Positions 5,976-19,767 are shown, counted from the first letter of the stretch. The stretch is 32,000 nt of DNA from Candidatus Methylomirabilis oxygeniifera (GCA_000091165.1 FP565575.1:600001-632000); one strand, 5' to 3'. Numbers and translations are program-made. The notes: generated by a model from the sequence alone, not told the origin.

Positions 5976-6770
5976 GTGCGAACGGCGTTGACCATTGCCG
6001 GATCGGATTCCGGGGGTGGAGCGGGGATTCAGGCCGATCTGAAAACCTTTGCGGCCCTTGGGGTGTTCGGGACATCGGCGATCACGTCGGTGACGGCCCA
6101 GAATACAGTCGGTGTCCAAGGGGTGTATGATCTACCGCCCAAGTTCGTTGGCCGCCAGATCGACTCGGTGCTGGAAGATATCGCCATCGATGCGGCCAAG
6201 ACTGGGATGCTCTCCAGTGCAGCAATCATCCAGGTGGTCGCGGAGAAGGTGAACGCGTATCGGATCGAGCGGCTGGTGGTCGATCCGGTAATGGTGGCCA
6301 AGGGTGGGGCGCCACTCCTGCAATCTGATGCCGTAAAAGTACTTATCGAGCATCTGCTGCCACTCGCGCTCGTCGTCACGCCCAATGTACCGGAGGCCGA
6401 GGCGCTCACAGGGCTGACGATTACTGAGCTCAATGGGATGCGTCAGGCGGCGCGGCAGATCCACGACTTCGGTCCGAGGCACGTCGTCCTCAAGGGGGGC
6501 CACCTTGGCTGTCGTGCGATTGATCTCCTGTTTGATGGAAGTGGCTTTACGGAGTTTGACGCTGAGCGGATCGATACGCCGCACACGCACGGGACCGGAT
6601 GCGTGTTTTCTGCGGCTATCACTGTGGAACTGGCGAAGGGCAGTCCGGTTCCCGAGGCGATCGCCACTGCCAAGCGGTTCATTACGGCTGCTATCCGTCA
6701 TGGGTTTCGACTCGGCAAGGGAGTCGGCCCGACCGATCCGATGGCGGCCGCCGGAAGCCTTACACCGTAA
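5976..6770 (+). CDS. thiD: Hydroxymethylpyrimidine/phosphomethylpyrimidine kinase
   Basis: TIAGSDSGGGAGIQADLKTF, DPVMVAKGG and GTGCVFSAAI motifs. I prefer the GTG start at 5976, preceded by GGAGGTGA. The ORF is open from 5922. Confidence 0.9.
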   Translation: MRTALTIAGSDSGGGAGIQADLKTFAALGVFGTSAITSVTAQNTVGVQGVYDLPPKFVGRQIDSVLEDIAIDAAKTGMLSSAAIIQVVAEKVNAYRIERLVVDPVMVAKGGAPLLQSDAVKVLIEHLLPLALVVTPNVPEAEALTGLTITELNGMRQAARQIHDFGPRHVVLKGGHLGCRAIDLLFDGSGFTEFDAERIDTPHTHGTGCVFSAAITVELAKGSPVPEAIATAKRFITAAIRHGFRLGKGVGPTDPMAAAGSLTP

Positions 6771-6803
6771 AAACAGGGCAGAGGGTGTAGGGGATATTGA
6801 ATC

Positions 6804-7499
6804 ATGCACAATCGGACCCTGCATCGATGGGACGTCTCGCCGAAAGAAGCGGTGGCGATCCAGCTCACGCTGCGATCTCAGCTTTGTCTGCATGGGACAG
6901 GATCGTTCGCCACAGTCGCGGGGATCGATGTCGCGTACGACAAGCATTCGAGGCTGATGTTTGCCGGCGTCGTTGTCATGAGCGGCGATGGGTGTGAACT
7001 GCTGGATTGCGCCACCGCGACGGCCAACGCACAGTTCCCGTACATCCCTGGACTCCTATCGTTCCGGGAGATACCGCCGGTGATTAAGGCATGGGATCAA
7101 CTCAAGACGGTGCCGGAGTGCCTGATCTGTGATGGTCACGGCCTCGCCCATCCCCGCCGCTTTGGGCTCGCCTGTCATCTGGGCCTCGTACTCGATCTCC
7201 CTTCGATCGGGTGTGCGAAGAGTCGTCTAGTGGGGACGCACCAGGAGCCGCGGACACGTCGCGGGAGCGTTGCGCCGCTGCTGGATCAGGGCGAGCAGAT
7301 CGGCATGGTCCTACGGACGAAAGATGGAGTGGCGCCGGTCTTTGTCTCGCAGGGCGATCGGATCAGCCTGGATGCCGCCCTACAGACGGTGCTCGCAACC
7401 TGCCACGGCTATCGACTTCCGGAGCCTCAGCGACGCGCCCATCTGCTGGTCACGAAGATGCGACTGGCCGCCAAAGCGGGGAAGGATGAGGGAGGCTGA
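6804..7499 (+). CDS. nfi: Endonuclease V
   Basis: 231 aa. GIDVAY, IPGLLSFREIPPVI and DGHGLAHPRRFGLACHLG motifs. Confidence 0.9.
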   Translation: MHNRTLHRWDVSPKEAVAIQLTLRSQLCLHGTGSFATVAGIDVAYDKHSRLMFAGVVVMSGDGCELLDCATATANAQFPYIPGLLSFREIPPVIKAWDQLKTVPECLICDGHGLAHPRRFGLACHLGLVLDLPSIGCAKSRLVGTHQEPRTRRGSVAPLLDQGEQIGMVLRTKDGVAPVFVSQGDRISLDAALQTVLATCHGYRLPEPQRRAHLLVTKMRLAAKAGKDEGG

Positions 7500-7569
7500 T
7501 AGCTGACTAATTACGGAACGCTATTTTCCAAGGAACACCTTATACGACTGCGGCCGCACTACGGTGCAC

Positions 7570-7660
7570 GAAAACCCCCTCGATCCCCCTTTGCGAAAGG
7601 GGGAGGCAAAGAGGCGTATCAGTAATACCCCCCTTACGAAAGGGGGGTCAGGGGGGTTTG
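7570..7660. repeat. Compound copy of the GC-rich palindromic element: one outer stem enclosing two inner CCCCC-TTxCGAAA-GGGGG hairpins
   Basis: Outer arms are AAAACCCCC (7571-7579) and GGGGGGTTT (7651-7659). Inner hairpins centre near 7595 and 7638. The 68-aa minus-strand ORF 7521-7727 is just its translation. Confidence 0.75.
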
Positions 7661-7727
7661 TCCGAAGCTGAATGCTGACCGCTGATAGCTTCTTTTGGTA
7701 CAGTGAGAGCGAAAAGGGAGAAATCAT

Positions 7728-8498
7728 ATGGAATTAGGGCTGCGTGGGAAGGTTGTGGTGGTGACCGGTGGAAGCCGGGGGATCGGCAGGGCGATTGCTC
7801 TGGGCTTCGCCGAGGAGGGGTGTAAGCTCAGCATCTGTGGACGAGGTCTGCCGGCACTGGAAGAGGCGACTACGGCGATGAAAGCCTACGGGGTCGAACT
7901 GCTTGCAGTATCCACCGACCTCACCGATCCTCATGGAGCCGAGCGCTTCGTACAGGCGACGCTCGACCGGTATGGCCGGATCGACGTCCTGGTGAACAAC
8001 ATCGGCGGGTCGCGCCGCGGAGAGCTGGAAATCCTCTCAGAAGACGATTGGCGGGAAGCGTACGATCTGAACTTCTTTTCCACGCTGCGGATGGCCAAAC
8101 TGGTCGTACCGGTCATGAAGCGACAGGGCGGTGGGCGGATCATCAACATCGCCTCGATCTGGGGACGAGAGTCGGGAGGGGCGATGACCTACAACGCCTC
8201 CAAGGCGGCGGTGATTAGCCTCTCCAAGTCGCTCGCCAAGGAACTGGCGCCTCACAATATCCTGGTCAACAGCGTCGCGCCCGGTTCGACCCTCTTTCCG
8301 GGCGGCTCGTGGGACAGGCGGCAGCGCGAGAACCCGGCTCAGATCGCTCAGTTTATCAAGGATGAGCTGCCGCTGGGCCGATTCGGCCGCCCCGAGGAGG
8401 TCGCCGCCGTCGTGATCTTCCTGGCATCCCAACAGGCCAGCCTCGTGACCGGCGCATGCGTCACCGTCGACGGCTGTCAGTCGCGGTCGCTCATCTGA
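7728..8498 (+). CDS. Short-chain dehydrogenase/reductase (FabG-like)
   Basis: 256 aa. TGGSRGIG Rossmann motif, NNIG, YNASKAA catalytic motif. RBS AAGGGAGA. Confidence 0.9.
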   Translation: MELGLRGKVVVVTGGSRGIGRAIALGFAEEGCKLSICGRGLPALEEATTAMKAYGVELLAVSTDLTDPHGAERFVQATLDRYGRIDVLVNNIGGSRRGELEILSEDDWREAYDLNFFSTLRMAKLVVPVMKRQGGGRIINIASIWGRESGGAMTYNASKAAVISLSKSLAKELAPHNILVNSVAPGSTLFPGGSWDRRQRENPAQIAQFIKDELPLGRFGRPEEVAAVVIFLASQQASLVTGACVTVDGCQSRSLI

Positions 8499-8815
8499 CC
8501 GCCCGGCGTGGGCGCTGAATCCTGTGCAGGTATATTGAGATTGTCTTGGTCGGTGTTTGTGGGTGTGATAGTGACTCGAAACTGGTTGACAAGTCCCTTG
8601 AAGGGAAAGACAATCCCAGCAGGAACCGACACTCGAATGGCCGTCATATACTGATCAGCGCGCTTATGTCGGTGCGCGATCGGACGACGGCAAGTAACTC
8701 GGGCCGCTTCAAGCAGCGCGGTCTCATATTCGGCGACGCATCGATGGTCAGGGCTGGGGTAGGGTCTGGCGCTGTATCCAGGAACTGATTTCGACGAAGG
8801 ATTGGGAGGCGTATC

Positions 8816-9124
8816 ATGACCCGTGTTCTCGAGAATAAGCGCCAAGCGATAGCTGAAGTCTGCCGGCGTCATGGTGTGGCCCGGCTGGACGCATTCGGCT
8901 CCGCCTTGCGTGATGACTTCAGACCAGGCGAGAGCGATGTGGACCTGCTGGTCGAGTTCTGGCCGATGGCACCATACGCCCGCGTCGACGCCTACTTCGG
9001 CCTGCTCGAAGAACTCAGGGCCTTACTGGGGTCGGAGGTCGACCTCGTCATGGCGGGGGCCGTCAAGAACCCGTACATCGCCCGCGATATCGATCGTACC
9101 AAGCGGATGCTCTATGCCGCATGA
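8816..9124 (+). CDS. Nucleotidyltransferase (MNT-type antitoxin of a HEPN/MNT pair)
   Basis: 102 aa. FGSALRDDFRPGESDVDLLVEF is the minimal-NTase GS...DxD pattern. Overlaps the downstream HEPN start by 11 nt. Confidence 0.85.
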   Translation: MTRVLENKRQAIAEVCRRHGVARLDAFGSALRDDFRPGESDVDLLVEFWPMAPYARVDAYFGLLEELRALLGSEVDLVMAGAVKNPYIARDIDRTKRMLYAA

Positions 9125-9201
9125 CGCACGCGCCTACTTGGCCGACATCATCGAGTCCTGCGACGCGATCACCGTCGCGGTTCGAGGGCTCGATCTCCCT
9201 C
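9114..9201 (+). pseudogene. HEPN (DUF86) toxin gene, 5' part, truncated by the IS insertion
   Basis: MPHDARAYLADIIESCDAITVAVRGLDLP, then the IS left end begins at 9202. Confidence 0.75.
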
Positions 9202-9269
9202 TGTGCCAATAATAGTGAGACACCTGCCCCCCTGTAAATTAGAGTAGAGGGTAGGGAGGAACACACATC

Positions 9270-9773
9270 ATGAGAACTGGACCGATCACAGCTTCCCAGG
9301 GCAGCGCAGTCGCCCGCCGAGTCCCCGCACGTCCGTGGCCTGGCACCGCACGCCCCGCCGAGCCGCAGCGGGTGGTCCCAGCAGTCCCACCCGATCCCGA
9401 GGTGCCCACAAAGCCGGCACGACGACGGTTCACCGCAGCCGAGAAGCTCCGCATCTTGAGACTCGCCGATGCCTGCACGGTGTCGGGGAGCCTGGGGGCG
9501 CTCTTACGCAAGGAGGGGCTGTACTCGTCGAACCTCACCACCTGGCGCCGACAGCGGGACGCGGGCACCCTGTCCGCCCTCACGCCCCAGAAGCGGGGCC
9601 GCAAACCGTCGATCCGCAGTCCACTCGCCCAGGAGCATGAGCAGCTTCGTCGGGAGAACGAACGGCTGACGCGGCGGCTCCGACAGGCCGAGCTCATCAT
9701 TGATGTTCAAAAAAAAGTTTCGCAGATCCTGGGGATCCCCCTGGCGACCTCCGAGGCAGGAGGCAGCGACTGA
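9270..9773 (+). CDS. IS3-family transposase OrfA (HTH plus leucine-zipper part)
   Basis: 167 aa. RRFTAAEKLRILRLADA...LRRENERLTRRLRQAELIIDVQKK is typical of IS3 OrfA. Confidence 0.85.
   Translation: MRTGPITASQGSAVARRVPARPWPGTARPAEPQRVVPAVPPDPEVPTKPARRRFTAAEKLRILRLADACTVSGSLGALLRKEGLYSSNLTTWRRQRDAGTLSALTPQKRGRKPSIRSPLAQEHEQLRRENERLTRRLRQAELIIDVQKKVSQILGIPLATSEAGGSD
9709..9716 (+). other. Probable -1 programmed ribosomal frameshift site (run of 8 A followed by G)
   Basis: The A-run is near the end of orfA. I checked that the -1 frame is open from 9710 through the orfB ATG at 9773, which would permit an OrfAB fusion as in other IS3 members. Confidence 0.6.
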
Positions 9774-10777
9774 TGGGCGCCGCGCAGACTCTGGCCTCCG
9801 AGGTAGGGATCAAACCGGCCTGCGACGCGTTCGGCACTTCTCGTGCCGGCTTCTACCGCGCCCAGACACGAACGCACGCTCCGATGGTGGAGCCAACGAG
9901 GCGCCCCAGCCCTCCACGGGCGCTGTCCGCCGATGAACGGCAGGGCGTGCTCGACCTGCTGCACGCCGACCGGTTTGCCGACCAGGCGCCCCATGAGGTC
10001 TATGCGACCCTCCTGGACGAAGGCGACTACCGCTGCTCCATCCGCACCATGTACCGACTCCTCAACGACCACACCGAGGTCAAAGAACGCCGGAACCAGT
10101 TGCGCCATCCGGTATATCAGAAACCGGAACTGCTGGCCACGGCCCCGAACCAGGTCTGGTCGTGGGACATTACGAAGCTCCTCAGCCCGGTGACGTGGTC
10201 CTACTTCTACCTCTATGTGATCCTGGACATTTTCAGCCGGTACGTCGTCGGCTGGATGGTCGCCTTGGCGGAATCGGCCGCCTTGGCCGAACGACTCATC
10301 CGTGAGACCTGCGCCAAACAGGGGATCGACAAAGGGCAGCTCACGATCCATGCGGACCGGGGCTCCTCCATGACCTCCAAGCCCGTGGCGTTCCTGTTGG
10401 CCGATCTGGGCGTCACCAAAACCCACAGCCGGCCGCATACGAGTGATGACAACCCGTACTCGGAAAGTCAGTTCAAGACCCTCAAGTACCGACCGGACTT
10501 CCCGGAACGGTTCGGGTGCATCGAGGATGCCCGGGGCTTCTGTCAGGACTTCTTCACCTGGTATAACACCGCGCATCGGCATACGGGCATTGGTCTCCTG
10601 ACACCGGAGGTCCTGCACTACGGCTTGGCGGACGAGGTCCGCGCGGCTCGCGCCGCGATCCTGCAGGCCGCCTATGAAACCCATCCGGAGCGGTTCGTCC
10701 GCAAGGTGCCGGTTCCCCCGGCGCTTCCGGAGGCCGCGTGGATTAACAAACCGAAGCCGATGGATACCGAGCGATGA
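9773..10777 (+). CDS. IS3-family transposase OrfB (DDE/rve integrase core)
   Basis: 334 aa. WSWDITKL, HADRGSSMTS and DNPYSESQFKTLKYRP give the D, D, E context. Confidence 0.9.
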   Translation: MGAAQTLASEVGIKPACDAFGTSRAGFYRAQTRTHAPMVEPTRRPSPPRALSADERQGVLDLLHADRFADQAPHEVYATLLDEGDYRCSIRTMYRLLNDHTEVKERRNQLRHPVYQKPELLATAPNQVWSWDITKLLSPVTWSYFYLYVILDIFSRYVVGWMVALAESAALAERLIRETCAKQGIDKGQLTIHADRGSSMTSKPVAFLLADLGVTKTHSRPHTSDDNPYSESQFKTLKYRPDFPERFGCIEDARGFCQDFFTWYNTAHRHTGIGLLTPEVLHYGLADEVRAARAAILQAAYETHPERFVRKVPVPPALPEAAWINKPKPMDTER

Positions 10778-10825
10778 GGCGCGACACTAAATTCGGACAC
10801 CAGGTGTCTCAAAATCATTGACACA

Positions 10826-11113
10826 TTCCGTCTCTCCGGATATGAAAACAGTCGCCTGGTCCGCTCATCGGTCGAGCGCGAGTTTATCATTATCGGAGAG
10901 GCTGTCGCAGCACTCGCCCGGGTTGCGCCGAAGACCTTCGATGCGATCACGCGAGCACGCAGGATCGTGGACTTCCGTAATCATCTCACCCATGAGTATC
11001 CGACCGTGGACAACGCTCTCGTGTGGGCGATTGTCGAGCATGATGTGCCGGTACTTCGCCGGGAGTGTGCCGTACTCATTCAGCGCGTTGTGCCTGAGGA
11101 CACGCCGAGCTAA
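10826..11113 (+). pseudogene. HEPN (DUF86) toxin gene, 3' part
   Basis: My translation: FRLSGYENSRLVRSSVEREFIIIGEAVAALARV...RRIVDFRNHLTHEYPTVD...VPEDTPS, stop TAA 11111-11113. Carries the R-x4-H HEPN motif (RNHLTH). Confidence 0.75.
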
Positions 11114-11115
11114 CC

Positions 11116-11466
11116 ATCGCCTCGATCTGGGGACGGGAGTCGGGAGGGGCGATGACCTACAACGCCTCCAAGGCGGCGGTGATCAGCCTCTCCAAGTCGC
11201 TCGCCAAGGAACTGGCTCCTCACAATATCCTGGTCAACAGCGTGGCACCCGGCTCGACTCTCTTTCCTGGTGGCTCGTGGGACCGACGACAGCGCGAAAA
11301 CCCGGCTCAGATCGCCCAGTTCATCAAAGACGAACTGCCGCTGGGCCGATTCGGCCGCCCCGAGGAGGTCGCGGCCGCCGTGGTCTTCCTGGCGTCCCAA
11401 CAGGCCAGCCTCGTGACCGGCGCATGCGTCACCGTCGACGGCTGCCAGTCGCGCTCGCTCATCTGA
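11116..11466 (+). pseudogene. Second copy of the SDR gene 3' end (351 bp, no 5' part)
   Basis: Aligns without gaps to 8148-8498. I count 24 mismatches but only 2 amino-acid changes (AAVVIF vs AAAVVF). Starts directly after the HEPN stop. Confidence 0.85.
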
Positions 11467-11485
11467 CCGTTCGCCTGTTCCTCTG

Positions 11486-11527
11486 CTGTTCTGGCCCGTC
11501 ATTCCGTGCTTGACACGGAATCCAGTC
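11486..11527 (+). repeat. 42-bp hairpin element, copy 2 (CTGTTCTGGCCCGTCATTCCGTGCTTGACACGGAATCCAGTC)
   Basis: Perfect reverse-complement match to 5788-5829. Confidence 0.85.
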
Positions 11528-11637
11528 TGGCTTTCTGGATACACGAACTCGCGGCAAGCCGCGAGGAATGAACCCTCTGTAGATTCACACGGTTCGAGAT
11601 TTGTCACCGAGAGGTCAGCGCCTCTATGGTTAGACCA

Positions 11638-11858
11638 ATGTCCTAACCCGAGACGGCAGAGGGGTTCGCAGCCGTCTGGACGCACCCGCGGAATTTTACT
11701 TCGGTCGGCCCTATCAGGATCAGGCTGACCGCTGGGGCGGCCTCTGCCGCTCTAGGCCTTGTTGAAATTCCGTTGACAAGTCTGTGAAATCGCAGGAAAC
11801 TCCAACCTATTGTGAGTATTTTTGTGACTGTGCTATACAGACCAGTATAATCATAGTT
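11638..11858 (+). repeat. R220 repeat, copy 1: long imperfect palindrome followed by a promoter-like 3' part
   Basis: Aligns end to end with 18206-18424, with scattered mismatches, a 3-nt indel and one more divergent 16-nt patch. Contains the stem GAGACGGCAGAGG (11650-11662) / CCTCTGCCGCTC (11741-11752) and an inner GGTCGGCC/GGCTGACC hairpin. Confidence 0.85.
11822..11851 (+). promoter_or_regulatory. Putative sigma70-type promoter (TTGTGA-N18-TATAAT) upstream of the TIR gene
   Basis: TATAAT at 11846-11851 is conserved in the other R220 copy. The -35 is weak and the spacing is 18 nt. Prediction by eye only. Confidence 0.35.
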
Positions 11859-11890
11859 CTGTCGCTCCGTGATGGAAAGGGCAGTCGGAA

Positions 11891-13069
11891 TTGGAAGTGA
11901 GCTTTCCTACAGACGCGGACAAGTTCCTTTTGCGGGAATGCCCATCTTGCGAACAGCGGTTTAAGGTCGTATTCGGGGAGGGGAGCGACGAGCTGATCTC
12001 GTGCTGCCCGTACTGCGGATACAACGAGCGCAACTGTTGGCACGCTCAGCCACAGGTCGAGTACATACAGGCAGTCGCCGCCAGCGTTGTTGTCGCCCCC
12101 GAACTCAAGAAACTGGAACGCCATCTCAAGGGAATGTCGAAGGGCATTCTCAAAATCGACGTCAATTCGAGCATCTCGTCGCCGCCACCGCCGCCTATGG
12201 AGACGGATGAACCGTTCGCCATCCTTCACTTTCCATGCTGCAACGAAACAATCAAGGTTGAACGTCGCGACCACCATTTTTGCGTTATCTGTGGTACGGA
12301 GGTTGACATGGGAATCAGCGACTCGAAGAAAGTGTTCTTGAGCCACAAAGGTATTGACAAGGATTTGGTAATTGACTTCAAGAAATCCTTGAAACTGGTT
12401 GGTTACGACCCGTGGCTAGACGAAGATGCGATGCCCGCGGGGACGTCACTTGAACGCGGGCTCCTTCAAAGTATGCGGGATTCTTGCGGCGTCGTGTTTT
12501 TTGTTACTCCATCGTTCAAAGACGAGGGGTTCCTGGAAACCGAAGTCAATTACGCGATTCAAGAGAAGCGGAAGAAGGGCGACAAATTCGCAATTGTGAC
12601 GCTGCAGTTTTGCGGCGCTGACGGCAACGTCGGGGAAATTCCTGAATTGCTCAAGACCTACGTCTGGAAGAAGCCTAAAACGCCACTTGAGGCGTTCGGG
12701 GAAATTGTTCGCGCGCTGCCGGTCGTGCCGGGAATCGTTGACTGGCGCGAAGGGATCACGGGTGTAGTTACCACTCCGAGGACGAAATCGACAACCACGC
12801 AGCTTTGCGATGAAGCAAAGGCGATTTTGAAGGCTGCAGTGGCCGGTGACGGAAGAATCACACACCTTCGCAACATGGGCGGTGAAAAAATTGGAGCGGG
12901 GGGTCAGTCGATGATACCGGACAATGATTCGCGCACCATTGCTCGTTGGGTTGGCGGCCTCGAAGATCTCCAACGTCGCCGATACGCCAAAGATCTCGGC
13001 CACAAGGGCGAGGTCTTCGAAGTCACCAGGGAAGGCTACGAAGCGGCAGACGAACTTCCAGACGCTTGA
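11891..13069 (+). CDS. Zn-ribbon / TIR domain protein with an unassigned C-terminal domain
   Basis: 392 aa. CPSC...CCPYC and PCC...CVIC cysteine pairs sit at the N-terminus. The TIR-like core spans aa 146-275 (KKVFLSHKG...WLDEDAMPAG...VVFFVTPSFKDEGFLETEVNYA). Start is TTG 11891 or GTG 11897; there is no in-frame ATG. Confidence 0.8.
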   Translation: MEVSFPTDADKFLLRECPSCEQRFKVVFGEGSDELISCCPYCGYNERNCWHAQPQVEYIQAVAASVVVAPELKKLERHLKGMSKGILKIDVNSSISSPPPPPMETDEPFAILHFPCCNETIKVERRDHHFCVICGTEVDMGISDSKKVFLSHKGIDKDLVIDFKKSLKLVGYDPWLDEDAMPAGTSLERGLLQSMRDSCGVVFFVTPSFKDEGFLETEVNYAIQEKRKKGDKFAIVTLQFCGADGNVGEIPELLKTYVWKKPKTPLEAFGEIVRALPVVPGIVDWREGITGVVTTPRTKSTTTQLCDEAKAILKAAVAGDGRITHLRNMGGEKIGAGGQSMIPDNDSRTIARWVGGLEDLQRRRYAKDLGHKGEVFEVTREGYEAADELPDA

Positions 13070-13085
13070 TGGAAAGGGGCACGCG

Positions 13086-13175
13086 ACAAAACTAGGCGAT
13101 CCACCAGAGCCGCGTTCAGGTTGTGCAGTATGGCTAGGCTGTATCGTCGCGGCCTGGTGATCCCGGTCGTTAGGG
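13086..13175 (+). other. attC-like imperfect palindrome S1
   Basis: ACAAAAC (13086-13092), 5-nt spacer, then GATCCACCAGAGCCGCG (13098-13114). That arm pairs with CGCGGCCTGGTGATC (13148-13162) as 15 bp with 2 bulged bases. A 6-nt spacer and GTTAGGG (13169-13175) follow. No T-tract. Confidence 0.4.
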
Positions 13176-13249
13176 GGTATTTTGTCAAGCGCCCCAGGGT
13201 GTTTGCGGGATTCATCTGATAGCTGGGCTCTGGAGAAGTGAAACCATAG

Positions 13250-15076
13250 ATGAGCATTCTGGGACGGTTCCTCAATCGACTGACAGAGAGTGAAGAAGGC
13301 GCTTACCTTGCGCCCCGGGAACGTGCATACGAGCATACGCGCGATGCGCGCACGCTAGAACCCGCCGGAGCAGCCATCGTCCGTTTTGCACCGACCTTCA
13401 AGCTTGAGCGGGAAGCAACGCAGTGGCCTGATGGCTTCTGGAACCACTTCAACTCCGCCAACTCTCACTACAAGCGAGGGCACTATCGCAAAGCCAAAGA
13501 GGCCTACTCATCGGCTCGTTCACTGCTTGCCGGCTATGGGGCCCTGGACACCGCCCTGCTCCGGACGTACAGAAAGCTGTACAGGGGCGCCATAGACAAG
13601 AAGCGTTGGGACGAAGCCTACCAGGAGCTATGCGAGCTATTCGAGACGCTTCCTTCTGGCGTCTCAGACACGGACAGGCGGCAGTTCAAAAAGGTTATGC
13701 AGGTGCTCAAGAAGTCCGATCCGGGCTTCTCGGGGCAACCCATGCCGCTGCAGGAACAGAGGCAAACGGGAGGCGAGAAGCCATCGGCGGAAGTGGAGTC
13801 CGCCTCCGGCAAAGACATCGCGGTGCAGCGAGATGAAACGTGGGAGCGACCCAAAGGCGAAAAGCCGCTCAGATGGCAAGAAAACCAGCTCACCTCAGGG
13901 GGGTTTCTTGCCGTGCACCGGAGGTATGACGAGCAGGCCGGAGGCTACCGCTCCTGCAATATCAGGACATACTCTTCACATGGAGACATCCAATCCGAGA
14001 AAGACTGGCTGCGCAGCTTCTACAGACTGAAGATCAGTAACACCGGAGAGCACCTGATAGGCTATTCTGACGATCTGCAGATGTCACTGTCGACGCTAAG
14101 CGGGGACATACTCGCCGAGCGAAGCGTCGCACGCGTCGCCGACGGCAACAAGTACCACATCCGATGCGTTGATCTATCTGAAGGCGGGATGCACTGCCTC
14201 TTCACATCCGCGACAAGGGCGTACCTTCTCGATCAAATGCTTCGCACGCTCTGTGTCTGGATAATGCCGCCCCCGCCTGGCTACCAGGTTGAGCACGGTG
14301 GCCAGGACGCTGGCCACCAACGTATAGAGAGGGCGTTTGCGACGCTGGAGCTGACAGGCCATCCGACGCAGGAGGAGATCAGAGCGCAGTTCCGGCAGAT
14401 GGTGTTCCGCTACCATCCGGACCGGAACCCTGGGGACACTGCGGCGCAGGAACGCACCAAGGAGATCATCGCAGCATACAAGATGGTGTCAGAGGAAGAC
14501 GTCGCTGCTGCCCTTGAGGGCCTGGGTGACAGAGAGTACTACTACCAGATTCTGCATGAGACGGAGCTGGATATAGGTGACACGGGCTACTCTGTGAAGC
14601 TCAGAATGTCCATGAGTGGTCCCGGCGATTGGATATATGCAACCCACATGACGGCGCGGGCGGAGAGGATCTATCTCGGCTGCTATTCCGGCTTGATCTA
14701 CTGCGTTGATCTTGACGGGAACGTCCTCAAAGTCTACCAGACGGATGCCCCGATCGACGGCATCGTGGAGCGAGGACAACATCTATACATATGGACGCAC
14801 ACCAGCCTGTACGTGTTGGGCCGCGACAAGGTCGTTAGCCACATCGATCTTAGGGGAGGCAGCCTCAAGTGTTTCGCAGAATGGGGGCTTATTGTCAAGA
14901 AAGGATCCTCCCTTGTTCTGTGCTCAGCAGACGGGACTTGGCTTGCGAATGTCCGTTTCCAAAGGGAGGCCCATGAGGTAGTCCCGACCTCAAGCGGTCT
15001 TGTCGCCTACACGACGAAAGAACGGTTTCGCGTCTCGCTGTCGGATGCACCTGCGGCTTCGTCTGCCAGATCGTAG
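13250..15076 (+). CDS. J-domain (DnaJ-like, HPD motif) protein with TPR-like N-terminus and beta-propeller-like repeats
   Basis: 608 aa. J-domain around aa 358-417 (FATLELTGHPTQEEIRAQFRQMVFRYHPDRNPGD...IIAAYKMV), with HPD at nt 14414-14422. It is flanked by beta-strand-rich repeats (IYCVDLDGNVLKVYQ, LYIWTHTSLYVLG). The fold assignment of the flanks is inference. Confidence 0.8.
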   Translation: MSILGRFLNRLTESEEGAYLAPRERAYEHTRDARTLEPAGAAIVRFAPTFKLEREATQWPDGFWNHFNSANSHYKRGHYRKAKEAYSSARSLLAGYGALDTALLRTYRKLYRGAIDKKRWDEAYQELCELFETLPSGVSDTDRRQFKKVMQVLKKSDPGFSGQPMPLQEQRQTGGEKPSAEVESASGKDIAVQRDETWERPKGEKPLRWQENQLTSGGFLAVHRRYDEQAGGYRSCNIRTYSSHGDIQSEKDWLRSFYRLKISNTGEHLIGYSDDLQMSLSTLSGDILAERSVARVADGNKYHIRCVDLSEGGMHCLFTSATRAYLLDQMLRTLCVWIMPPPPGYQVEHGGQDAGHQRIERAFATLELTGHPTQEEIRAQFRQMVFRYHPDRNPGDTAAQERTKEIIAAYKMVSEEDVAAALEGLGDREYYYQILHETELDIGDTGYSVKLRMSMSGPGDWIYATHMTARAERIYLGCYSGLIYCVDLDGNVLKVYQTDAPIDGIVERGQHLYIWTHTSLYVLGRDKVVSHIDLRGGSLKCFAEWGLIVKKGSSLVLCSADGTWLANVRFQREAHEVVPTSSGLVAYTTKERFRVSLSDAPAASSARS

Positions 15077-15078
15077 TC

Positions 15079-15154
15079 AGCCGAACACCCCCTAACCGGC
15101 GCTTGCTGCCAGACAGCGCTATGCGCTGCAGCAGAAGCGCCAATCGTTCGGCTT
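15079..15154 (+). other. attC-like imperfect palindrome S2
   Basis: AGCCGAAC (15079-15086) pairs with GTTCGGCT (15147-15154). Inner stem GGCGCTTGCTGC (15098-15109) / GCAGCAGAAGCGCC (15128-15141) has a 2-nt bulge. Also carries ACCCCCTAAC (15087-15096). Starts 3 nt after the stop codon. Confidence 0.45.
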
Positions 15155-15190
15155 GTTCGAGAACTATCAACAGAGTCGGGAGGGAACAGC

Positions 15191-16396
15191 ATGGGACTCC
15201 GTTTTCGAAGGTCAGTAAAGCTCGCTCCCGGTGTCCGAATGAACTTCAGCGGCAGTGGCGTAAGTTGGACGCTTGGCCCTAGGGGCGCGTCCGTCGGTAT
15301 CGGGAAGCGAGGGACGTATTTCAACACTGGTATTCCCGGAACGGGATTTTACGCCAGGGAGCGTATGGCGGGTTCCCGTGCAGGCAACCGGGCACGTGCA
15401 TCATCCTACTCAAACATATCCGTCTCTGTTGGAGTAGCAGATGATGGAACAGTGTATTTCCAGGACGCAGAAGGAAAGCCGCTCGCAGAACATTTGATCA
15501 ATACAGCAAAAAAGCAACAAGGTGACGCAATACGAGATCTTATTCAACAGAAATGTGATGAGATAAATGCACAAATCGAAGCGCTTGGGGAAATTCACGT
15601 CGATACTCCGAACCCCAATGTAAAGCTCCAATATCAACCACAGGAGTTTCCAGAATCTCCGCCCACAAAACCGGGTCCAAAAAAACCTGGGCTAATGGGC
15701 ATGTTCTTCAAGTCCGGACGAGAAAGAATAGAAAGAGAAAACCAAGCGAGAGAGCGTCAATTCGAGGAGGACCTTGAAAAATGGCGAGCGGCTAAATACC
15801 AGTTCGATGAAGCCGAGGAACATCGTAAGGATGTGATCGAACGAGGCATCTACACCAATGTGGAGATGATGGAAAACTTCTTGGAAGAGAACTTACAGAG
15901 CATTGTTTGGCCGCGTGAGACAATTTTATCAACAGAGATTCTTGATAACGGAAAAAGGGTGTTCGTCGATGTCGATCTCCCGGAGTTAGAAGGTATGCCG
16001 AGCAAAACAGCTTCGGCCCCCCAGCGAGGCTACAAGCTATCCGTAAAGGAAATGTCAGCCACACAGATTCAACGACTGTACATGCGTCATGTACACGGAA
16101 TCGGATTCAGAATTATAGGGGAAACCTTTGGTGCTTTACCCAACGCACAAGAAGTGGTGCTCTCCGCATATTCGCAACGTCCAGATCGAACAACTGGCCA
16201 TGTAACGGATGAGTATCTTTATTCGGTGCGAGTAACCAGGGCTTCATGGTCTCGCATAAATTTTGACAATCTGCAGAACTTGGATGTTGTAGATGCTCTT
16301 ACGCAGTTTGACTTGAAGAGAAACATGACAAAGACGGGGGCCTTCAAACCCATCGAACCATTCACCCCGAATGCACAGAAAATCGAACAGGCCTAA
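15191..16396 (+). CDS. DUF4236 domain protein
   Basis: 401 aa. The N-terminus MGLRFRRSVKLAPGVRMNFSGSGVSWTLGPRGASVGIGKRGTYFNTGIPGTGFY is the DUF4236 signature. A charged coiled-coil-like middle and an unassigned C-terminal domain follow. Confidence 0.8.
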   Translation: MGLRFRRSVKLAPGVRMNFSGSGVSWTLGPRGASVGIGKRGTYFNTGIPGTGFYARERMAGSRAGNRARASSYSNISVSVGVADDGTVYFQDAEGKPLAEHLINTAKKQQGDAIRDLIQQKCDEINAQIEALGEIHVDTPNPNVKLQYQPQEFPESPPTKPGPKKPGLMGMFFKSGRERIERENQARERQFEEDLEKWRAAKYQFDEAEEHRKDVIERGIYTNVEMMENFLEENLQSIVWPRETILSTEILDNGKRVFVDVDLPELEGMPSKTASAPQRGYKLSVKEMSATQIQRLYMRHVHGIGFRIIGETFGALPNAQEVVLSAYSQRPDRTTGHVTDEYLYSVRVTRASWSRINFDNLQNLDVVDALTQFDLKRNMTKTGAFKPIEPFTPNAQKIEQA

Positions 16397-16468
16397 CGAG
16401 ATACTCCAACAGAAGGCGCTGTCGGCGCTCCGCGCCGCCAGGGCCGCGGCTGAGCTTCGTCGTTGGGT
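16391..16468 (+). other. attC-like imperfect palindrome S3
   Basis: GCCTAAC (16391-16397) overlaps the TAA stop. TCCAAC (16405-16410) pairs with GTTGGG (16462-16467) and GAAG with CTTC, with bulges. GC-rich centre contains a GGCGC-TCC-GCGCC hairpin. Confidence 0.45.
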
Positions 16469-16505
16469 TACCTGCGCCAATGTCAGTTGGTCGGGTTGAT
16501 ACTAC

Positions 16506-17192
16506 ATGGACTCTCGCTACATTGCTGCAGTTAGTATGGCGTTCGTAATAGCCATAGGTTTCCTCAGGACGCTCACCGCCTATAGAGGGTTGAAGAAGCG
16601 CAGGGACTTTGTATCTGAGTTCTCTGACAAGTTCGTGGAATTTGCCAATAATCCAGATTTCGACGGCAAGCTGTATTATTGGCTGACTCACAACTCGGTT
16701 GCCATTCAATCGGAACTTGGTCCCTTGGGTGTTGCATCCTACAAACCGCCGGCAATTGATTACGTGATACACAATTACCAGATGATCGTCAATCTTCTGC
16801 CAGAACTGAGAAGAAAGAAGACTGAGAATCGTTTGTTTCGCGATGGGGAAATCCACCGCGAATATGCCACAATGTGCCTGGATATCTTGGTCAGGTATCT
16901 GGGTGTAATCGATAGATGGCTACAAGAGGCGAGAGATGAGCTTCGAAACCCGTTTATCTGGCTTGGCCAAGGTGTTCAATCCATTCTGCTTTTGCCCGCC
17001 TATGTCCTGCACTGGTTTGGCTTACTTGGTGCATCTGCTCTGGGGACACTGACAAGAAACATCCTTGTCAAAAGCATTTCGTTCATTGTAGCTGTCGTGG
17101 GTCTTTTGAGTAGCTTGGTTACACTCCTCGTTGGATGGGAGGAGACGGCAAGAATAATTGGGCCTCTATGGCGCGACGCCTTTGGCCCATAA
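16506..17192 (+). CDS. Multi-pass membrane protein, no family recognised
   Basis: 228 aa. Hydrophobic segments YIAAVSMAFVIAIGFL, SILLLPAYVLHWFGLLGASALG and ISFIVAVVGLLSSLVTLLVGW. Same strand as the three upstream genes. Confidence 0.6.
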   Translation: MDSRYIAAVSMAFVIAIGFLRTLTAYRGLKKRRDFVSEFSDKFVEFANNPDFDGKLYYWLTHNSVAIQSELGPLGVASYKPPAIDYVIHNYQMIVNLLPELRRKKTENRLFRDGEIHREYATMCLDILVRYLGVIDRWLQEARDELRNPFIWLGQGVQSILLLPAYVLHWFGLLGASALGTLTRNILVKSISFIVAVVGLLSSLVTLLVGWEETARIIGPLWRDAFGP

Positions 17193-17201
17193 GTCATGGC
17201 A

Positions 17202-17266
17202 GCCCAACATCACGTGCATCCGACCGCTTCGCGCTATGTGCTCGCGGCTTATGCGCTGCGTTCGCT
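17202..17266 (+). other. attC-like imperfect palindrome S4
   Basis: GCCCAAC (17202-17208), 5-nt spacer, then GTGCATCCGAC (17214-17224). That arm pairs with GCTTATGCGC (17247-17256). A 3-nt spacer and GTTCGCT (17260-17266) follow. Centre is CCGCTTCGCG...CGCGG. Confidence 0.45.
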
Positions 17267-17450
17267 GATTTCGGGGACACCATGCTGTATGCTTCACTTC
17301 GGGATTGAGTGGGAATCGGTATGGTATCCTAATATCCTGGGTCGGAAGTTCGGCGAAGAAATAGGCGCCGCATGTGGTGTCACTCCCGCGAAGCTTGTCC
17401 CCGCGGGCTTTAGGCGGGGAGCGGGAATCCAGAACTTCTCTTACTCGCTG
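17249..17450 (+). repeat. R200 repeat, copy 1 (structured, apparently non-coding)
   Basis: Aligns with 19072-19281. Contains the imperfect inverted repeat GGACACCATGCTG / CGGTATGGTATCC and a GTCAyTCCCGCG...GGGAATCC double hairpin. Confidence 0.85.
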
Positions 17451-17632
17451 GATTCCGGCTCGCGCCCGCTACGCGGCCCCCGACCTGATCGGGGGCGGAA
17501 TGACGTCGGAATATCTGCAACGAATTTCAGAAATGGCTCTTCCGGATTGAGTGTGGGTAAAGATCCAAACCTCCGCAATGAAAGTAGATCGCGGTCTTGA
17601 AGTGCTCGACGTTGCGGCGTCAAGACCTCGCC

Positions 17633-17732
17633 GGTCGCCACCGTCGTGATCTTTCTGGCATCCCAACAGGCCAGCCTCGTGACCGGCGCATGCGTCACCG
17701 TCGACGGCTGTCAGCCGCGTTCGCTCATCTGA
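17633..17732 (+). pseudogene. Third copy of the SDR gene 3' end (100 bp)
   Basis: Aligns to 8399-8498 with 4 mismatches by my count and ends at the same TGA. Preceded by the hairpin GGTCTTGA (17593-17600) / TCAAGACC (17620-17627). Confidence 0.8.
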
Positions 17733-17814
17733 CGCCCGGGCCACGCTTGACAGGGAAGACGTTTATCTATACAAATCTCCGCCTGGAAGGCGAACAAACG
17801 ACAGAGGGTGCAGT

Positions 17815-18027
17815 ATGAAAAAAATCGTTGCTGAACCGTATCGCGATATCGATTTCTCCCGTGCCAAGCGAGGCGCAGTCATCAAGCCGGAGCCTGGCAA
17901 GACCAAGATTTCTATCCGGCTCGACAATGCCATCCTCGACTATTTTCGCTCACTGGCTGACGAGGCGGGTGGCGGGAGTTATCAGACACTGATCAACAAC
18001 GCCCTGTCCGCGTATATCCAGCAGTAA
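17815..18027 (+). CDS. BrnA-like (DUF4415/CopG-like) antitoxin, orphan
   Basis: 70 aa. KISIRLDNAILDYFRSLADEAGGGSYQTLINNALSAYI matches the BrnA pattern. No BrnT-like ORF lies upstream. Confidence 0.7.
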   Translation: MKKIVAEPYRDIDFSRAKRGAVIKPEPGKTKISIRLDNAILDYFRSLADEAGGGSYQTLINNALSAYIQQ

Positions 18028-18205
18028 TCGGTCCTGGAGGCGGTTCGACGGGTTGTCAGGGAGGAACTCGTTCTCCCGAAAGCGGGGCGTGATTTAACTC
18101 GACGGTCGACAGGACGCCGCGCGAGCGCGACGTAAGCCAGGTAACGCACCGGGCACTTCGTTTCACTGCCGACAACGCCCTCGTCACCTGTTCCGACTCC
18201 CTCCA

Positions 18206-18424
18206 TTGTCCTAAACCGAGACGGCAGAGGGGTTCGCAGCCTTGGACGCACCCGCGGAATCTTACGTTGGTCGGCCCTATTAGGATTAGGCCGACCGCTG
18301 TGGCGGCCTTTGCCGCTATAGGCCTTGTTGAAATTCCGTTGACAAGCCTGTGAAATCGCAGGAAACTCCAACGTATTGTGAGTAGCCTTGAGACTATACG
18401 ATACAGACCAGTATAATCATAGTT
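18206..18424 (+). repeat. R220 repeat, copy 2
   Basis: See 11638-11858. The inner hairpin is perfect here (GGTCGGCC/GGCCGACC). Confidence 0.85.
18388..18417 (+). promoter_or_regulatory. Putative sigma70-type promoter (TTGAGA-N18-TATAAT) upstream of the antitoxin/ParE pair
   Basis: Same position within R220 as 11822-11851. By eye only. Confidence 0.35.
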
Positions 18425-18478
18425 AGCTATCAAGAAGAGCAACTTGCTGACTTGGTCAAAGGAGCGTATCATCAGGCT

Positions 18479-18700
18479 ATGAGTACGCCAACCATCGACA
18501 TTGAGAAGCTCTCCTCCGAGGAACGCCTTCGCCTTATTGAGGACCTGTGGGAGAGCCTTCGCACGAGACCGGACGCGGTCCCGCTGACCCGCGCGCAGCA
18601 GGACGAACTCGATCGCCGTCTTGATGAACTCGACCGGGGCGAAACCGAAACGGTCCCTTGGGAAGAGGTCAAGCGACGGCTCCGTGATCGGCCCGAGTGA
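18479..18700 (+). CDS. Addiction-module antitoxin (small acidic helical type paired with ParE/RelE toxins)
   Basis: MSTPTIDIEKLSSEERLRLIEDLWESL...LDRRLDELDRGE. The ORF is open from TTG 18452 but I prefer ATG 18479. Its stop overlaps the toxin GTG start (GTGA). Confidence 0.75.
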   Translation: MSTPTIDIEKLSSEERLRLIEDLWESLRTRPDAVPLTRAQQDELDRRLDELDRGETETVPWEEVKRRLRDRPE

Positions 18701-18996
18701 CTCGATCCGGGTTTCGGCCAGCAGCCTCGGCCGATGTCCAGGCCGCCTACGAGTGGTACGAATCGCAACGTCCGGGCCTCGGCAACGAGTTCATCACTGC
18801 CGTGGATACCGCCGTCGCATCTATTCTTGCGTTCCCAAAGGCTTACGCCGTGGTTCATCGTGGTGCCCGTCGCGTCTTGCTCGAACGCTTTCCATATGGC
18901 CTCTACTACCGTATCGACGGTGCGAGGATTGTTGTCGTCGCATGCATGCACGCGGCGCGCGATCCAAGGCGGTGGCGTTCGCGCCTTGATGGTTAA
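18697..18996 (+). CDS. RelE/ParE-family type II toxin
   Basis: 99 aa. AASADVQAAYEWYESQRPGLGNEF...RVLLERFPYGLYYRIDGARIVVVACMHAARDP is a typical ParE-like pattern. Confidence 0.8.
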   Translation: MTRSGFRPAASADVQAAYEWYESQRPGLGNEFITAVDTAVASILAFPKAYAVVHRGARRVLLERFPYGLYYRIDGARIVVVACMHAARDPRRWRSRLDG

Positions 18997-19089
18997 CACG
19001 CGCGTCAACCCGCCGGTCCGTCCGGCTGCGCCGGTTACGTCTCCATGGAGCGAGTGCGGGCGGCCCTCGGGTTACGCGCCCCGTTCGCT
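18991..19089 (+). other. attC-like imperfect palindrome S5
   Basis: GGTTAAC (18991-18997) overlaps the TAA stop. GCGCGTCAACC (19000-19010) pairs with GGTTACGCGC (19070-19079) as 10 bp with one bulged C. GTTCGCT lies at 19083-19089. Internal CTCCATGGAG palindrome. Confidence 0.4.
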
Positions 19090-19281
19090 GATTTCGGGGA
19101 CACCATGCTGTATGCTTCACTTCGGGGTTGAGTGGGAATCGGTATGGTATCCTCATGTCCTAGGTCGAAAGTTCGGCGAAGAAATAGACGCCGCATGTGA
19201 TGTCATTCCCGCGACACTTGTCCCTGCAGGCTTTAAGCGGGGAGGGGGAATCCGGAACTCCTCTTACTCTCTTACTCGCTG
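19072..19281 (+). repeat. R200 repeat, copy 2
   Basis: See 17249-17450. Carries a tandem duplication of CTCTTACT near its 3' end. Confidence 0.85.
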
Positions 19282-19764: not shown

Positions 19765-19767
19765 CCG

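Follow-up and report, generated by a model that had tools for sequence, protein, structure and literature searches.

Repeated SDR gene ends mark a toxin-antitoxin and defence islet probably filled stepwise in Methylomirabilis oxyfera

The 3' end of a short-chain dehydrogenase (SDR) gene occurs three times in a 32-kb stretch of DNA (the window) from the methane oxidiser Candidatus Methylomirabilis oxyfera. The first copy closes the intact gene, and the other two lie as relics in the DNA that separates it from the convergent core gene glgP. The features are as follows, by window position.

7728-8498, + strand: intact SDR gene, 256 aa (Pfam adh_short_C2 1.4e-55, adh_short 2e-54); its last 351 bp (8148-8498, +) are copy 1
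8499-8516: spacer remnant behind copy 1; ancestral SDR-glgP spacer 17-18 nt (by-eye comparison with empty-site loci)
8816-9124, +: module 1, MNT nucleotidyltransferase, antitoxin (Pfam NTP_transf_2 2.9e-12; PADLOC PDC-S09 2e-33)
9114-9197, +: module 1, N-terminal part of HepT (HEPN toxin), cut by the IS (reading frame; intact gene in L167)
9198-10830, +: IS3-family insertion sequence (Pfam rve 1.1e-21; inverted repeats 9202-9226 and 10801-10825), with orfA (9270-9773), orfB (rve, 9773-10777) and target duplication TCTC (9194-9197 and 10831-10834)
10831-11113, +: HepT C-terminal part, end of module 1, stop TAA at 11111-11113
11116-11466, +: copy 2, 351-bp SDR 3' relic from a different functional allele (repeats, alignment, dN/dS, tree)
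11482-11543: hairpin-type dispersed repeat, inverted copy at 5772-5833 (87% by repeat search; 97.8% over 46 nt by blastn)
11635-11858, +: module 2, R element, conserved non-coding DNA (90-95% identity to 18203-18424)
11897-17192, +: module 2 cargo (Pfam, PADLOC TIR-type matches, gene calls of other assemblies), namely TIR protein (11897-13069), DnaJ/TPR protein (13250-15076), DUF4236 protein (15191-16396) and a 228-aa protein without family match (16506-17192), all +
17240-17449, +: module 2, Y element, dispersed non-coding repeat (89% identity to 19063-19272)
17633-17732, +: copy 3, 100-bp SDR 3' relic (repeats, alignment)
17815-18027, +: start of module 3, brnA antitoxin gene without a brnT partner (Pfam BrnA_antitoxin 4.1e-10)
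18203-18424, +: module 3, R' element
18479-18996, +: module 3 cargo (Pfam and gene calls), antitoxin Unstab_antitox (18479-18700, +; Pfam 1.3e-18) and ParE-type toxin (18697-18996, +; Pfam 7.1e-9)
19063-19272, +: module 3, Y' element
19537-20052, - strand: module 4 (Pfam, comparison with L004), HicA-type toxin (19537-19764, -; Pfam) and PHD-like antitoxin (19768-20052, -; Pfam)
20182-20199: spacer remnant beside the glgP stop and right islet edge (empty-site homology resumes at 20182-20209)
20200-22692, -: glgP, glycogen phosphorylase, core gene on the right flank (Pfam Phosphorylase, 1041 bits)

Repeat search and MAFFT alignment delimit the direct copies at 8147/8148-8498, 11115/11116-11466 and 17633-17732; all three are closed by the same in-frame TGA, past which the repeats extend for about 9 nt. 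By exact count copy 2 differs from copy 1 by 24 substitutions and no indels, with 21 of the 24 at third codon positions and V228A and I230V as the sole protein changes, and copy 3 differs from copy 1 at 4 positions and from copy 2 at 9. These results agree with the original prediction, according to which the last 351 bp and the last 100 bp of SDR recur downstream in the same orientation and up to the same TGA, with 24 differences and two amino acid changes in the longer copy and 4 differences in the shorter. A 351-bp match at 93% identity far exceeds chance. Only 2 nt separate the HepT stop codon from the left joint of copy 2; the shared AAC that had been pointed out there carries no weight, since it is a match of 1-3 nt that needs a 1-nt offset. 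Within the window sequence the two relic joints show only 1-3 nt of possible microhomology, too little for a mechanistic signature to be read from them.

Between copies 1 and 2 there are 22 synonymous and 2 non-synonymous changes (dS 0.29), and the resulting dN/dS of 0.027 indicates that copy 2 diverged within a working gene. In a neighbour-joining tree of the 3' ends and SDR orthologues, a comparison that the original prediction had proposed, copy 1 joins the SDR of another organism (L095) and stands apart from copy 2 (reported bootstrap 100%), while copy 3 joins copy 1 (reported bootstrap 97.5%). Duplication of the SDR end in situ, followed by divergence with or without gene conversion, would fit the similarity of the three copies, which at 93-96% identity rank among one another's nearest relatives, but it is effectively refuted by the substitution pattern and we regard it as very improbable: if half of the changes (12 hits) had been neutral in a dead copy, two or fewer non-synonymous changes would arise with P = 3e-4, and the L095 orthologue is nearer to copy 1 than copy 2 is. 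The earlier view of the middle copy as shaped by purifying selection, and not a recent duplicate made in place, is thus upheld. Of the 4 changes that set copy 3 apart from copy 1, two are synonymous and two alter an amino acid (A to T, S to P), and the latter occur in no other sequence compared; because of these private changes copy 3 looks older, a weak indication of the order of the insertion events. Of the 24 differences between copies 1 and 2, 16 fall within 118 bp (P = 0.013), a clustering that may reflect later gene conversion.

The contents foreseen for the DNA between the copies, MNT/HEPN plus an IS element in one segment and a TIR block in the other, are corroborated by Pfam. Its extent was underestimated, as the accessory DNA runs to 20199 and comprises four modules, and the R and Y repeats had gone unnoted. 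Also absent from that account is the interruption of the HepT (HEPN) gene by the IS, whose boundaries were set against the uninterrupted MNT-HepT of L167. Once rejoined, the HepT protein gives a Pfam HepT-like match (1.6e-13), and another assembly also calls it HepT-like. The MNT gene shares 94.5% nucleotide identity with that of the sister species L168 at the same locus and 97% with that of L167 at another locus.

Modules 2 and 3 have the same order of SDR end, R, cargo and Y. The end of R holds a predicted sigma70-like promoter directed toward the cargo (11822-11851, promoter scan), and in R' the same scan gave the best promoter-like site of the islet (18388-18417, 11/12 matches). R is also found directly behind SDR in L002 and L168, and a piece of Y occurs in the unrelated contig L166. 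This shared scaffold gives modules 2 and 3 the look of alleles of a single locus and not of unrelated mobile elements; it is what the addition of entire variant alleles would lead one to expect. In L004, DNA homologous to module 4 begins 10 nt behind the SDR stop.

The empty site and alternative occupants, which the original prediction suggested looking for in related genomes, were both found. In at least seven related lineages the stop codons of SDR and of the convergent glgP are only 17-22 nt apart, and these loci read 'TGA CCGGCCGCGTCGGGCGGG CTAG'; the islet is absent from L003, L081, L083, L084, L085, L171 and L173. The similarity of this spacer to 8499-8516 is only suggestive because the sequence is short and GC-rich. 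Given the empty site in relatives, 8499-20199 as a whole represents an accessory islet, in which MNT/HepT (interrupted by the IS3-family element), the TIR block, brnA with ParE, and HicA are the four modules. Other occupants of the site are R, an AbiJ-like gene (PDC-S32) and a type I restriction-modification system in L002, a HicA module in L004, and ORFs without family matches in L095. SDR orthologues are full-length in all relatives. The SDR-glgP gap (17-18 nt) is a hotspot for toxin-antitoxin and defence modules in Methylomirabilis, with constant core flanks, an empty state and varied content that is mostly of these two kinds (in the window MNT/HepT, TIR, BrnA, ParE and HicA).

The sister species (L168, L169, L170) harbors SDR relics of its own at the same site, of 293 bp and about 20 bp, so that the four relic breakpoints in the two species (-351, -100, -293 and about -20) are all different. 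The dN/dS of 0.095 between copy 2 and the L168 relic shows that the two do not descend from a single inherited pseudogene. In L168 the 293-bp relic is joined to a 42-codon gene fragment whose N-terminus is reminiscent of that of type I restriction subunits. Together with the empty site and the other occupants, the independent relics of the sister species support the proposal that the three copies mark separate acquisitions. The relics all derive from SDR and none from glgP; the last 351 bp of SDR are 87-93% identical among lineages and those of glgP 73-84%, and SDR is the best available anchor.

A second islet in the window (3772-5921), missing from the original prediction, contains a relic of its own flanking desulfurase gene, from which it follows that the process is not specific to SDR.

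The genome derives from an enrichment metagenome, and contigs of two other assemblies break within the IS, at window positions 9322 and 10704, as might be expected if the arrangement were an assembly artefact such as a chimeric join of co-existing enrichment strains. Nevertheless, two other assemblies match the window at 100% identity over 10704-26396, on contigs that run through both relic joints, a third contig does so over 11500-17288, the joints have no k-mer logic that could mislead an assembler, and the HepT halves flanking the IS make one complete gene. An artefact is accordingly extremely improbable.

Pfam searches of the window's main ORFs, covering most of those with at least 100 aa, revealed no tyrosine or serine recombinase, the IS3-type transposase being the only recombinase among the ORFs scanned, in agreement with the earlier remark that neither segment carries an integrase. 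Nor was an integrase present among the genes scanned or called behind SDR in L002, L095 and L168 (Pfam scan of cargo ORFs for the first two, precomputed Pfam labels on gene calls for the third), where only IS transposases occur. Prophages and islands that target the 3' ends of protein genes and supply a replacement end are exemplified by e14 and phage 21 in icd and by ICESt1/CIME accretion in fda. As at this locus, part of the gene end is repeated directly, most of the differences are synonymous, and tandem arrays can form; these elements possess an integrase and a fixed crossover core, whereas here no integrase was found and the breakpoints vary.

Site-specific accretion would require integrative elements whose tyrosine or serine recombinase recognised an att site at the 3' end of SDR and which brought replacement ends; the integrase would since have been lost and the relics trimmed by deletion, or an integrase encoded elsewhere in the genome, outside the 32-kb window, would act in trans. 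In its favour, the copies form direct repeats of one orientation that each extend just past the stop codon, and 50 nt identical in all three (8427-8476) could hold a crossover core; this stretch, however, is coding sequence that is conserved in empty-site lineages as well. No single crossover core or common repeat boundary is apparent from the relic lengths (351 and 100 bp; 293 and about 20 bp in L168), although secondary trimming could also yield differing breakpoints, and secondary truncation is known at the locus from the fused L168 relic and from truncated SDR copies beside IS200/IS605 genes in L168 and L091/L172. Module 1 is a toxin-antitoxin pair of only about 1 kb, with a relic 2 nt behind its last stop codon, which leaves no room for att arms. 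Furthermore, no SDR fragment adjoins glgP in the window, the place where the native end displaced by a first integration would be expected, and modules 2 and 3 share their internal scaffold as alleles of one locus do. On balance we consider site-specific accretion unlikely, though deserving of consideration.

The relics could also stem from deletion of larger tandem duplications, or from rearrangements, via IS3, IS200/IS605 or hairpin repeats, and not from acquisition itself. Dispersed repeats (R, Y and hairpin elements) are abundant at the locus, 290 bp separate the IS3 element from copy 2, truncated SDR copies have IS200/IS605 transposase genes as direct neighbours in the two other lineages named above, and 7 kb of housekeeping genes have been transplanted into the site in L168. 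The IS3 element, on the other hand, is a simple insertion, bounded by a target duplication of 4 nt and by HepT halves that fit together, and neither relic joint in the window has an IS end. As the copies come from different alleles, DNA of another lineage must have come in anyway, and we hold an origin by rearrangement to be quite unlikely.

Repeated insertion-duplication, in which a DNA circle with cargo and a conserved SDR end enters by a single homologous crossover, is the best explanation, to which we assign a probability of roughly 55%. DNA of a related lineage would bring the conserved 3' part of SDR with its own downstream cargo, and a circle would be closed by one illegitimate joint between the cargo end and SDR position -351 or -100. 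The circle would then join the resident SDR through one homologous crossover (Campbell-type insertion-duplication); a linear homology-facilitated illegitimate event bridging sister chromosomes could give the same product. Since the fragment includes the stop codon, the upstream SDR copy would remain complete and functional, and a 5'-truncated, promoterless copy would stay behind the new cargo, each event thus adding one module and one relic. We infer the circular intermediate, the dependence on host homologous recombination and the route by which the DNA entered the cell.

Direct, 5'-truncated copies running to the same stop as an intact upstream gene, and bracketing the insert, are the textbook product of single-crossover insertion of a 3'-end fragment, and the differing breakpoints agree with the arbitrary segment length that an illegitimate joint produces. 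In a screen for homology-facilitated illegitimate recombination in E. coli, single crossovers of circular molecules accounted for 56/60 events, with duplications of 109-950 bp (PMC3240628); the relics in the window, at 100-351 bp, match the lower part of this range or fall slightly short of it. Several observations count against insertion-duplication. No circular form or excision product was found, nor was a donor lineage with single occupancy (e.g. full SDR-B, R and TIR block alone), and the protein collection searched lacks the hybrid SDR protein that loss of module 1 should produce. Also, homologous recombination works poorly on a 100-bp stretch of 91-96% identity, the clustering of the differences between copies 1 and 2 is not predicted by the simple model, and the joint of copy 2, 2 nt past the HepT stop, is tidier than a random break, for which selection for an intact toxin-antitoxin pair could account. 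Of the two routes originally envisaged, integration into or recombination at the gene end with a replacement end, the second gains support from the lack of an integrase in the occupied loci examined, the differing breakpoints and the Campbell-type architecture, and the first is disfavoured.

The locus is a clean new example of an already known type of process. It resembles insertion-duplication and homology-facilitated illegitimate recombination (PMC3240628; de Vries & Wackernagel 2002 and Prudhomme et al. 2002, as cited in PMC5361080) in having one homologous anchor, one illegitimate joint and no dedicated recombinase, and in the intact upstream and truncated direct copies (about 100-950 bp) that bracket foreign DNA. 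It differs from the laboratory cases in that the process would have recurred naturally at a single chromosomal hotspot of an uncultured bacterium, with diverged alleles of the same locus as donors. In C-terminal displacement arrays, such as the orphan toxin-immunity strings of Rhs/CDI and the T6SS immunity-gene arrays of Vibrio cholerae (PMC5361080), entry behind a conserved region likewise shifts older 3' ends and downstream genes into a stratified array, and the mechanism proposed is the same. There the displaced end is a variable toxin domain and itself cargo, whereas the displaced SDR ends, which each differ from the intact end by 2 amino acids, are near-invariant housekeeping sequence serving as portable homology only, with the cargo downstream. 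Hotspots of defence and toxin-antitoxin genes between core genes, turned over by homologous recombination of the flanks (PMC10250203; PMC13617665), share the same two core flanks, highly variable content, empty sites and lack of mobility genes; double crossovers leave no relics, unlike the additive events here with their dated flank remnants.

The SDR-glgP gap of M. oxyfera has thus probably been filled stepwise, most likely by successive addition of modules from related strains through ordinary recombination rather than a dedicated integrase. A further reading, which we put forward as doubtful, is that the SDR end and promoter element R form the portable homology arm of an integrase-free cassette system. 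A module between SDR-end repeats would loop out by host recombination as a circle with one hybrid SDR end and could re-enter the SDR gene of any related cell, R driving expression of whichever cargo follows. R is more conserved than the synonymous sites of SDR, and in four contexts, each with a different first gene, its homology ends about 7 nt past the -10 box; the cassette reading would explain both, as well as the restriction of relics to the SDR side. Integrons need intI, attI and attC, while here a conserved promoter-bearing element precedes different cargo, no integrase was found and repeat searches gave no attC-like repeats bounding genes. If true, the locus would constitute an integron-like gene-capture platform run wholly by homologous recombination.

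A repeat search of the Candidatus Methylomirabilis oxyfera window and alignment of the recovered segments placed three copies of the SDR 3' end where the original prediction had put them, with difference counts accurate to the base. The upstream gene encodes a complete short-chain dehydrogenase of 256 aa, and its last 351 bp (8148-8498, copy 1) recur as a direct repeat with 93% identity at 11116-11466 (copy 2). The last 100 bp, with about 9 nt beyond them, form a three-copy family (8399-8507, 11367-11475 and 17633-17741), copy 3 being the SDR end at 17633-17732. Copy 2 differs from copy 1 by 24 substitutions and no indels, with 21 of the 24 at third codon positions and V228A and I230V as the only amino acid changes; copy 3 differs at 4 positions from copy 1 and at 9 from copy 2.

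In at least seven related lineages (L003, L081, L083, L084, L085, L171 and L173) the site is empty, with the SDR stop and the convergent glgP stop separated by 17-22 nt, and all of 8499-20199 is therefore accessory. The copies had been proposed to divide the accessory DNA into two segments; the repeat-bounded copies stand, yet the extent does not, as four modules lie between SDR and glgP.

Features of the SDR-glgP islet (window coordinates)
7728-8498, plus strand: intact SDR gene
Module 1: MNT/HepT pair; an IS3-family element interrupts HepT, whose stop codon lies 2 nt ahead of copy 2
9198-10830: IS3-family element, splitting the HepT toxin gene; MNT antitoxin gene intact
Module 2: hairpin repeat, non-coding element R, TIR / DnaJ-TPR / DUF4236 / 228-aa gene block, repeat Y
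11482-11543, inverted at 5772-5833: hairpin-type repeat (GTCATTCCGTGCTTGACACGGAATCCAG...), directly behind copy 2 and also upstream of thiD
11635-11858 and 18203-18424 (also L002 2785-2957 and L168 8154-8428): element R, conserved non-coding, behind SDR, four contexts
17240-17449 and 19063-19272: repeat Y, 210 bp, 89% identity, closing modules 2 and 3
Module 3: orphan brnA, second R, antitoxin/ParE pair, second Y
Module 4: HicA-type pair, which in the related locus L004 starts 10 nt behind SDR
20200-22692, minus strand: glgP

Besides the empty sites, relatives yielded alternative occupants, which the original prediction had proposed to look for, with different cargo in L004, in L002 (R, an AbiJ-like gene and a type I restriction-modification system) and in L095 (ORFs without family matches). 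The idea that the SDR-glgP spacer was duplicated as a target site on both sides of the islet was considered and not retained, the two remnants resembling the empty-site spacer while being too short and GC-rich to decide. Among lineages the SDR 3' end is 87-93% identical, versus 73-84% for the glgP end, and all relics derive from SDR and none from glgP; the SDR 3' end is the hotspot's best available anchor.

The changes between copies 1 and 2 comprise 22 synonymous and 2 non-synonymous substitutions (Nei-Gojobori; dS 0.29, dN 0.008, dN/dS 0.027), and had just half of these 24 changes accumulated neutrally in a nonfunctional copy, finding at most two non-synonymous ones would have P = 3e-4. In neighbour-joining trees of the 3' ends with SDR orthologues, copy 1 clusters with the SDR from a different organism (L095; reported bootstrap 100%), copy 2 joins L082 weakly and copy 3, over 100 bp, falls with copy 1 (97.5%). 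Given this substitution pattern and these trees, copy 2 belonged until recently to a functional allele of a related lineage, as originally proposed. Duplication in situ is contradicted by the substitution evidence and is very improbable. Two of the four differences between copy 3 and copy 1 are non-synonymous and absent from every other sequence compared, as would suit a fragment that has been dead for longer. Clustering of the differences that separate copies 1 and 2 (P = 0.013) hints at later gene conversion. In the intact SDR gene, the middle part (7938-8398) is 96-98% identical to L095, and the first 210 bp, last 100 bp and neighbouring genes 78-91%, so that the middle looks like a recombination tract inside the gene.

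An assembly artefact, one possibility that could have undone the original prediction, is contradicted by the agreement between assemblies. In GCA_009026205.1, contig WBTX01000004.1 ends with window 1-9322 and WBTX01000003.1 starts with 10704-26396 (100% identical); an ENA assembly spans 10732-26396 and a Logan contig from SRR023516 spans 11500-17288, both 100% identical to the window. Both relic joints are therefore internal to contigs elsewhere, and the sole contig break at the islet lies in the IS interior. Put back together, the HepT halves flanking the IS give a complete HepT-like protein (Pfam 1.6e-13), and comparison with the uninterrupted gene in locus L167 shows that the IS inserted simply, duplicating 4 nt of target. 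Taken together, these observations make an artefact very unlikely, the least probable of the explanations weighed. The contigs of two other assemblies end inside the IS3-family element, which is therefore probably multi-copy in the genome.

Modules 2 and 3 share the order SDR end, R, cargo, Y, and so resemble two alleles of one locus set in tandem. The TIR / DnaJ-TPR / DUF4236 / 228-aa block (11897-17192) corresponds to no named PADLOC system beyond TIR-type matches. Homologues of its 608-aa DnaJ-TPR protein (65-69% identity) adjoin SIR2_2 or other genes in other metagenomes (L166 and JGI contigs), suggesting a candidate defence system with exchangeable effectors. The closest homologue (94% identity) lies on a 3-kb contig, more distant ones occur in unrelated contexts, and no single-occupancy donor of the block was found. 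Module 2 was also considered as a piece of a known plasmid or phage and this was rejected, a distant blastn search giving one 159-bp plasmid match and no phage match. In module 3 the brnA antitoxin gene (17815-18027) is without brnT and only 82 nt from the copy 3 end, so the toxin gene was probably lost as that joint formed, or earlier. A piece of Y occurs in the unrelated contig L166 (6443-6499), indicating a dispersed element, and the long ORFs over Y (17196-17600 and 18734-19282) are probably spurious. The hairpin-type repeat may be a REP-like or miniature element; a nearby hairpin resembles, by eye, one adjoining an IS200/IS605 transposase gene in contig L091. G/C-run hairpins (CCCCCC...TTACGAAA...GGGGGG) at or near gene ends (1621-1666, 7613-7658 and 23881-23926) may be terminators or a repeat family.

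The core of R, over 60 nt, is identical in M. oxyfera and L002, a conservation exceeding that of SDR synonymous sites. Its 3' end holds the best predicted sigma70-like sites of the islet, and homology ends about 7 nt past the -10 box, after which the first gene differs in all four contexts (TIR, an antitoxin, an AbiJ-like gene and a 120-aa ORF). Of the loose ends, this predicted promoter element, with a different first cargo gene behind it in each of four cases, is the most intriguing. One stretch resembled a T-arm plus CCA, as in a tRNA/tmRNA 3' fragment acting as a classical att site; this reading was rejected, as ARAGORN returned nothing and Rfam no tRNA-like match at E up to 10, nor any other match to R. 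A structured RNA was likewise not supported, since the covariation term from RNAalifold on the four copies was positive, which is unfavourable, and no more than 3 compensatory pairs appeared.

The sister species, named Ca. M. lanthanidiphila in protein accessions, has its own arrangement at the same site (L168, L169 and L170).

Order of features in the sister species
First part: intact SDR, R, 120-aa ORF, IS200/IS605 transposase gene, 19-20 nt SDR-end relic
Second part: spacer and MNT gene shared with the window, 42-codon fragment from an unrelated gene, 293-bp SDR relic, further genes, glgP

The spacer and MNT gene are 94.5% identical to the window, versus 80-86% for flanking core genes. Between copy 2 and the 293-bp relic dN/dS is 0.095, so the two are not one pseudogene from a common ancestor. 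The 42-codon fragment, fused to the relic, showed no match to the hsdR gene of L167. Between relic and glgP (L168 11519-18710) lie seven housekeeping genes (selA, tmk, holB, a PSP1-domain gene, metG, tatD and others), indicating that the hotspot also hosted a larger chromosomal rearrangement. IS200/IS605 (Y1) transposase genes abut truncated SDR copies in two lineages other than M. oxyfera: at L168 8974-9683 the neighbour is the 20-nt relic, and at L091 2003-2533 (L172 1-213) a truly 5'-truncated SDR lacking its first ~42 codons adjoins glgP and the element, with upstream synteny gone. A protein search also gave many short SDR-like ORFs (104, 117 and 127 aa); the long-contig cases checked (L171 and L173) are contig-edge truncations of intact genes at empty sites and thus were not counted as relics.

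A complete gene with direct copies behind it, each without promoter and 5' part but reaching the stop codon, is the pattern expected of Campbell-type insertion, in which a single crossover with a circle carrying an SDR 3' end would leave a complete gene and a direct truncated copy. Insertion-duplication is thus our preferred reading, with a probability of roughly 55%, and leaves the order of the two insertion events unfixed. The original prediction, supported in its interpretation, allowed for integration into the 3' end or recombination at it; recombination is favoured. Accretion by an integrase, followed by its loss and by relic trimming, is compatible with the 50 nt without difference among the three copies (8427-8476), and secondary truncations do happen at the locus. 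However, as originally noted for the two segments, neither the main ORFs of the window nor the genes scanned or called at the other occupied loci (L002, L095 and L168) yielded a tyrosine or serine recombinase, the four known breakpoints all differ (-351, -100, -293 and about -20 bp from the gene end), module 1 is tiny and no displaced SDR end lies beside glgP, making this route unlikely. Derivation of the relics from larger duplications by IS- or repeat-driven rearrangement is a shade less probable again.

For insertion-duplication there is precedent in an E. coli screen for homology-facilitated illegitimate recombination, where single crossovers of circular molecules made up 56 of 60 events and duplicated 109-950 bp of the homologous locus (PMC3240628). 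Orphan Rhs/CDI genes and Vibrio T6SS immunity strings are analogous natural arrays explained by the same mechanism (PMC5361080), and toxin-antitoxin islets that lack mobility genes are believed to spread through recombination within the core genes beside them (PMC13617665). Neither a circle nor a deletion product nor a single-occupancy donor turned up, the joints show no useful microhomology, and the hybrid SDR protein that loss of module 1 should create (5' part of copy 1 with the end of copy 2) is absent from a 15-billion-protein collection.

A second variable islet, missing from L003, lies between a 2-thiouracil desulfurase gene and thiD (3772-5921), and carries DUF433, YafQ/RelB and ORFs of no known identity. 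Within it, 45 codons of the adjacent desulfurase gene survive as a relic (5127-5240, minus strand; nucleotide repeat 3525-3608 / 5159-5242), a footprint of the kind seen at SDR, so the process does not depend on a single att site.

The way in which small toxin-antitoxin and defence islets that lack mobility genes enter chromosomes is still debated mainly from statistics on flanking core genes. At this locus at least two additive events have left physical remnants, and the sister species has its own at the same site, giving a readable stratigraphy in which DNA comes from related lineages, the conserved 3' end of a housekeeping gene serves as anchor and insertion adds without replacing. For an organism closed to genetic manipulation the locus yields testable predictions, since defined deletion and circle junctions ought to show up in long reads from enrichment cultures. 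Known recombination processes are at work rather than a new system, and the locus offers a natural, well-preserved case of additive insertion-duplication at a core-flanked defence and toxin-antitoxin hotspot.
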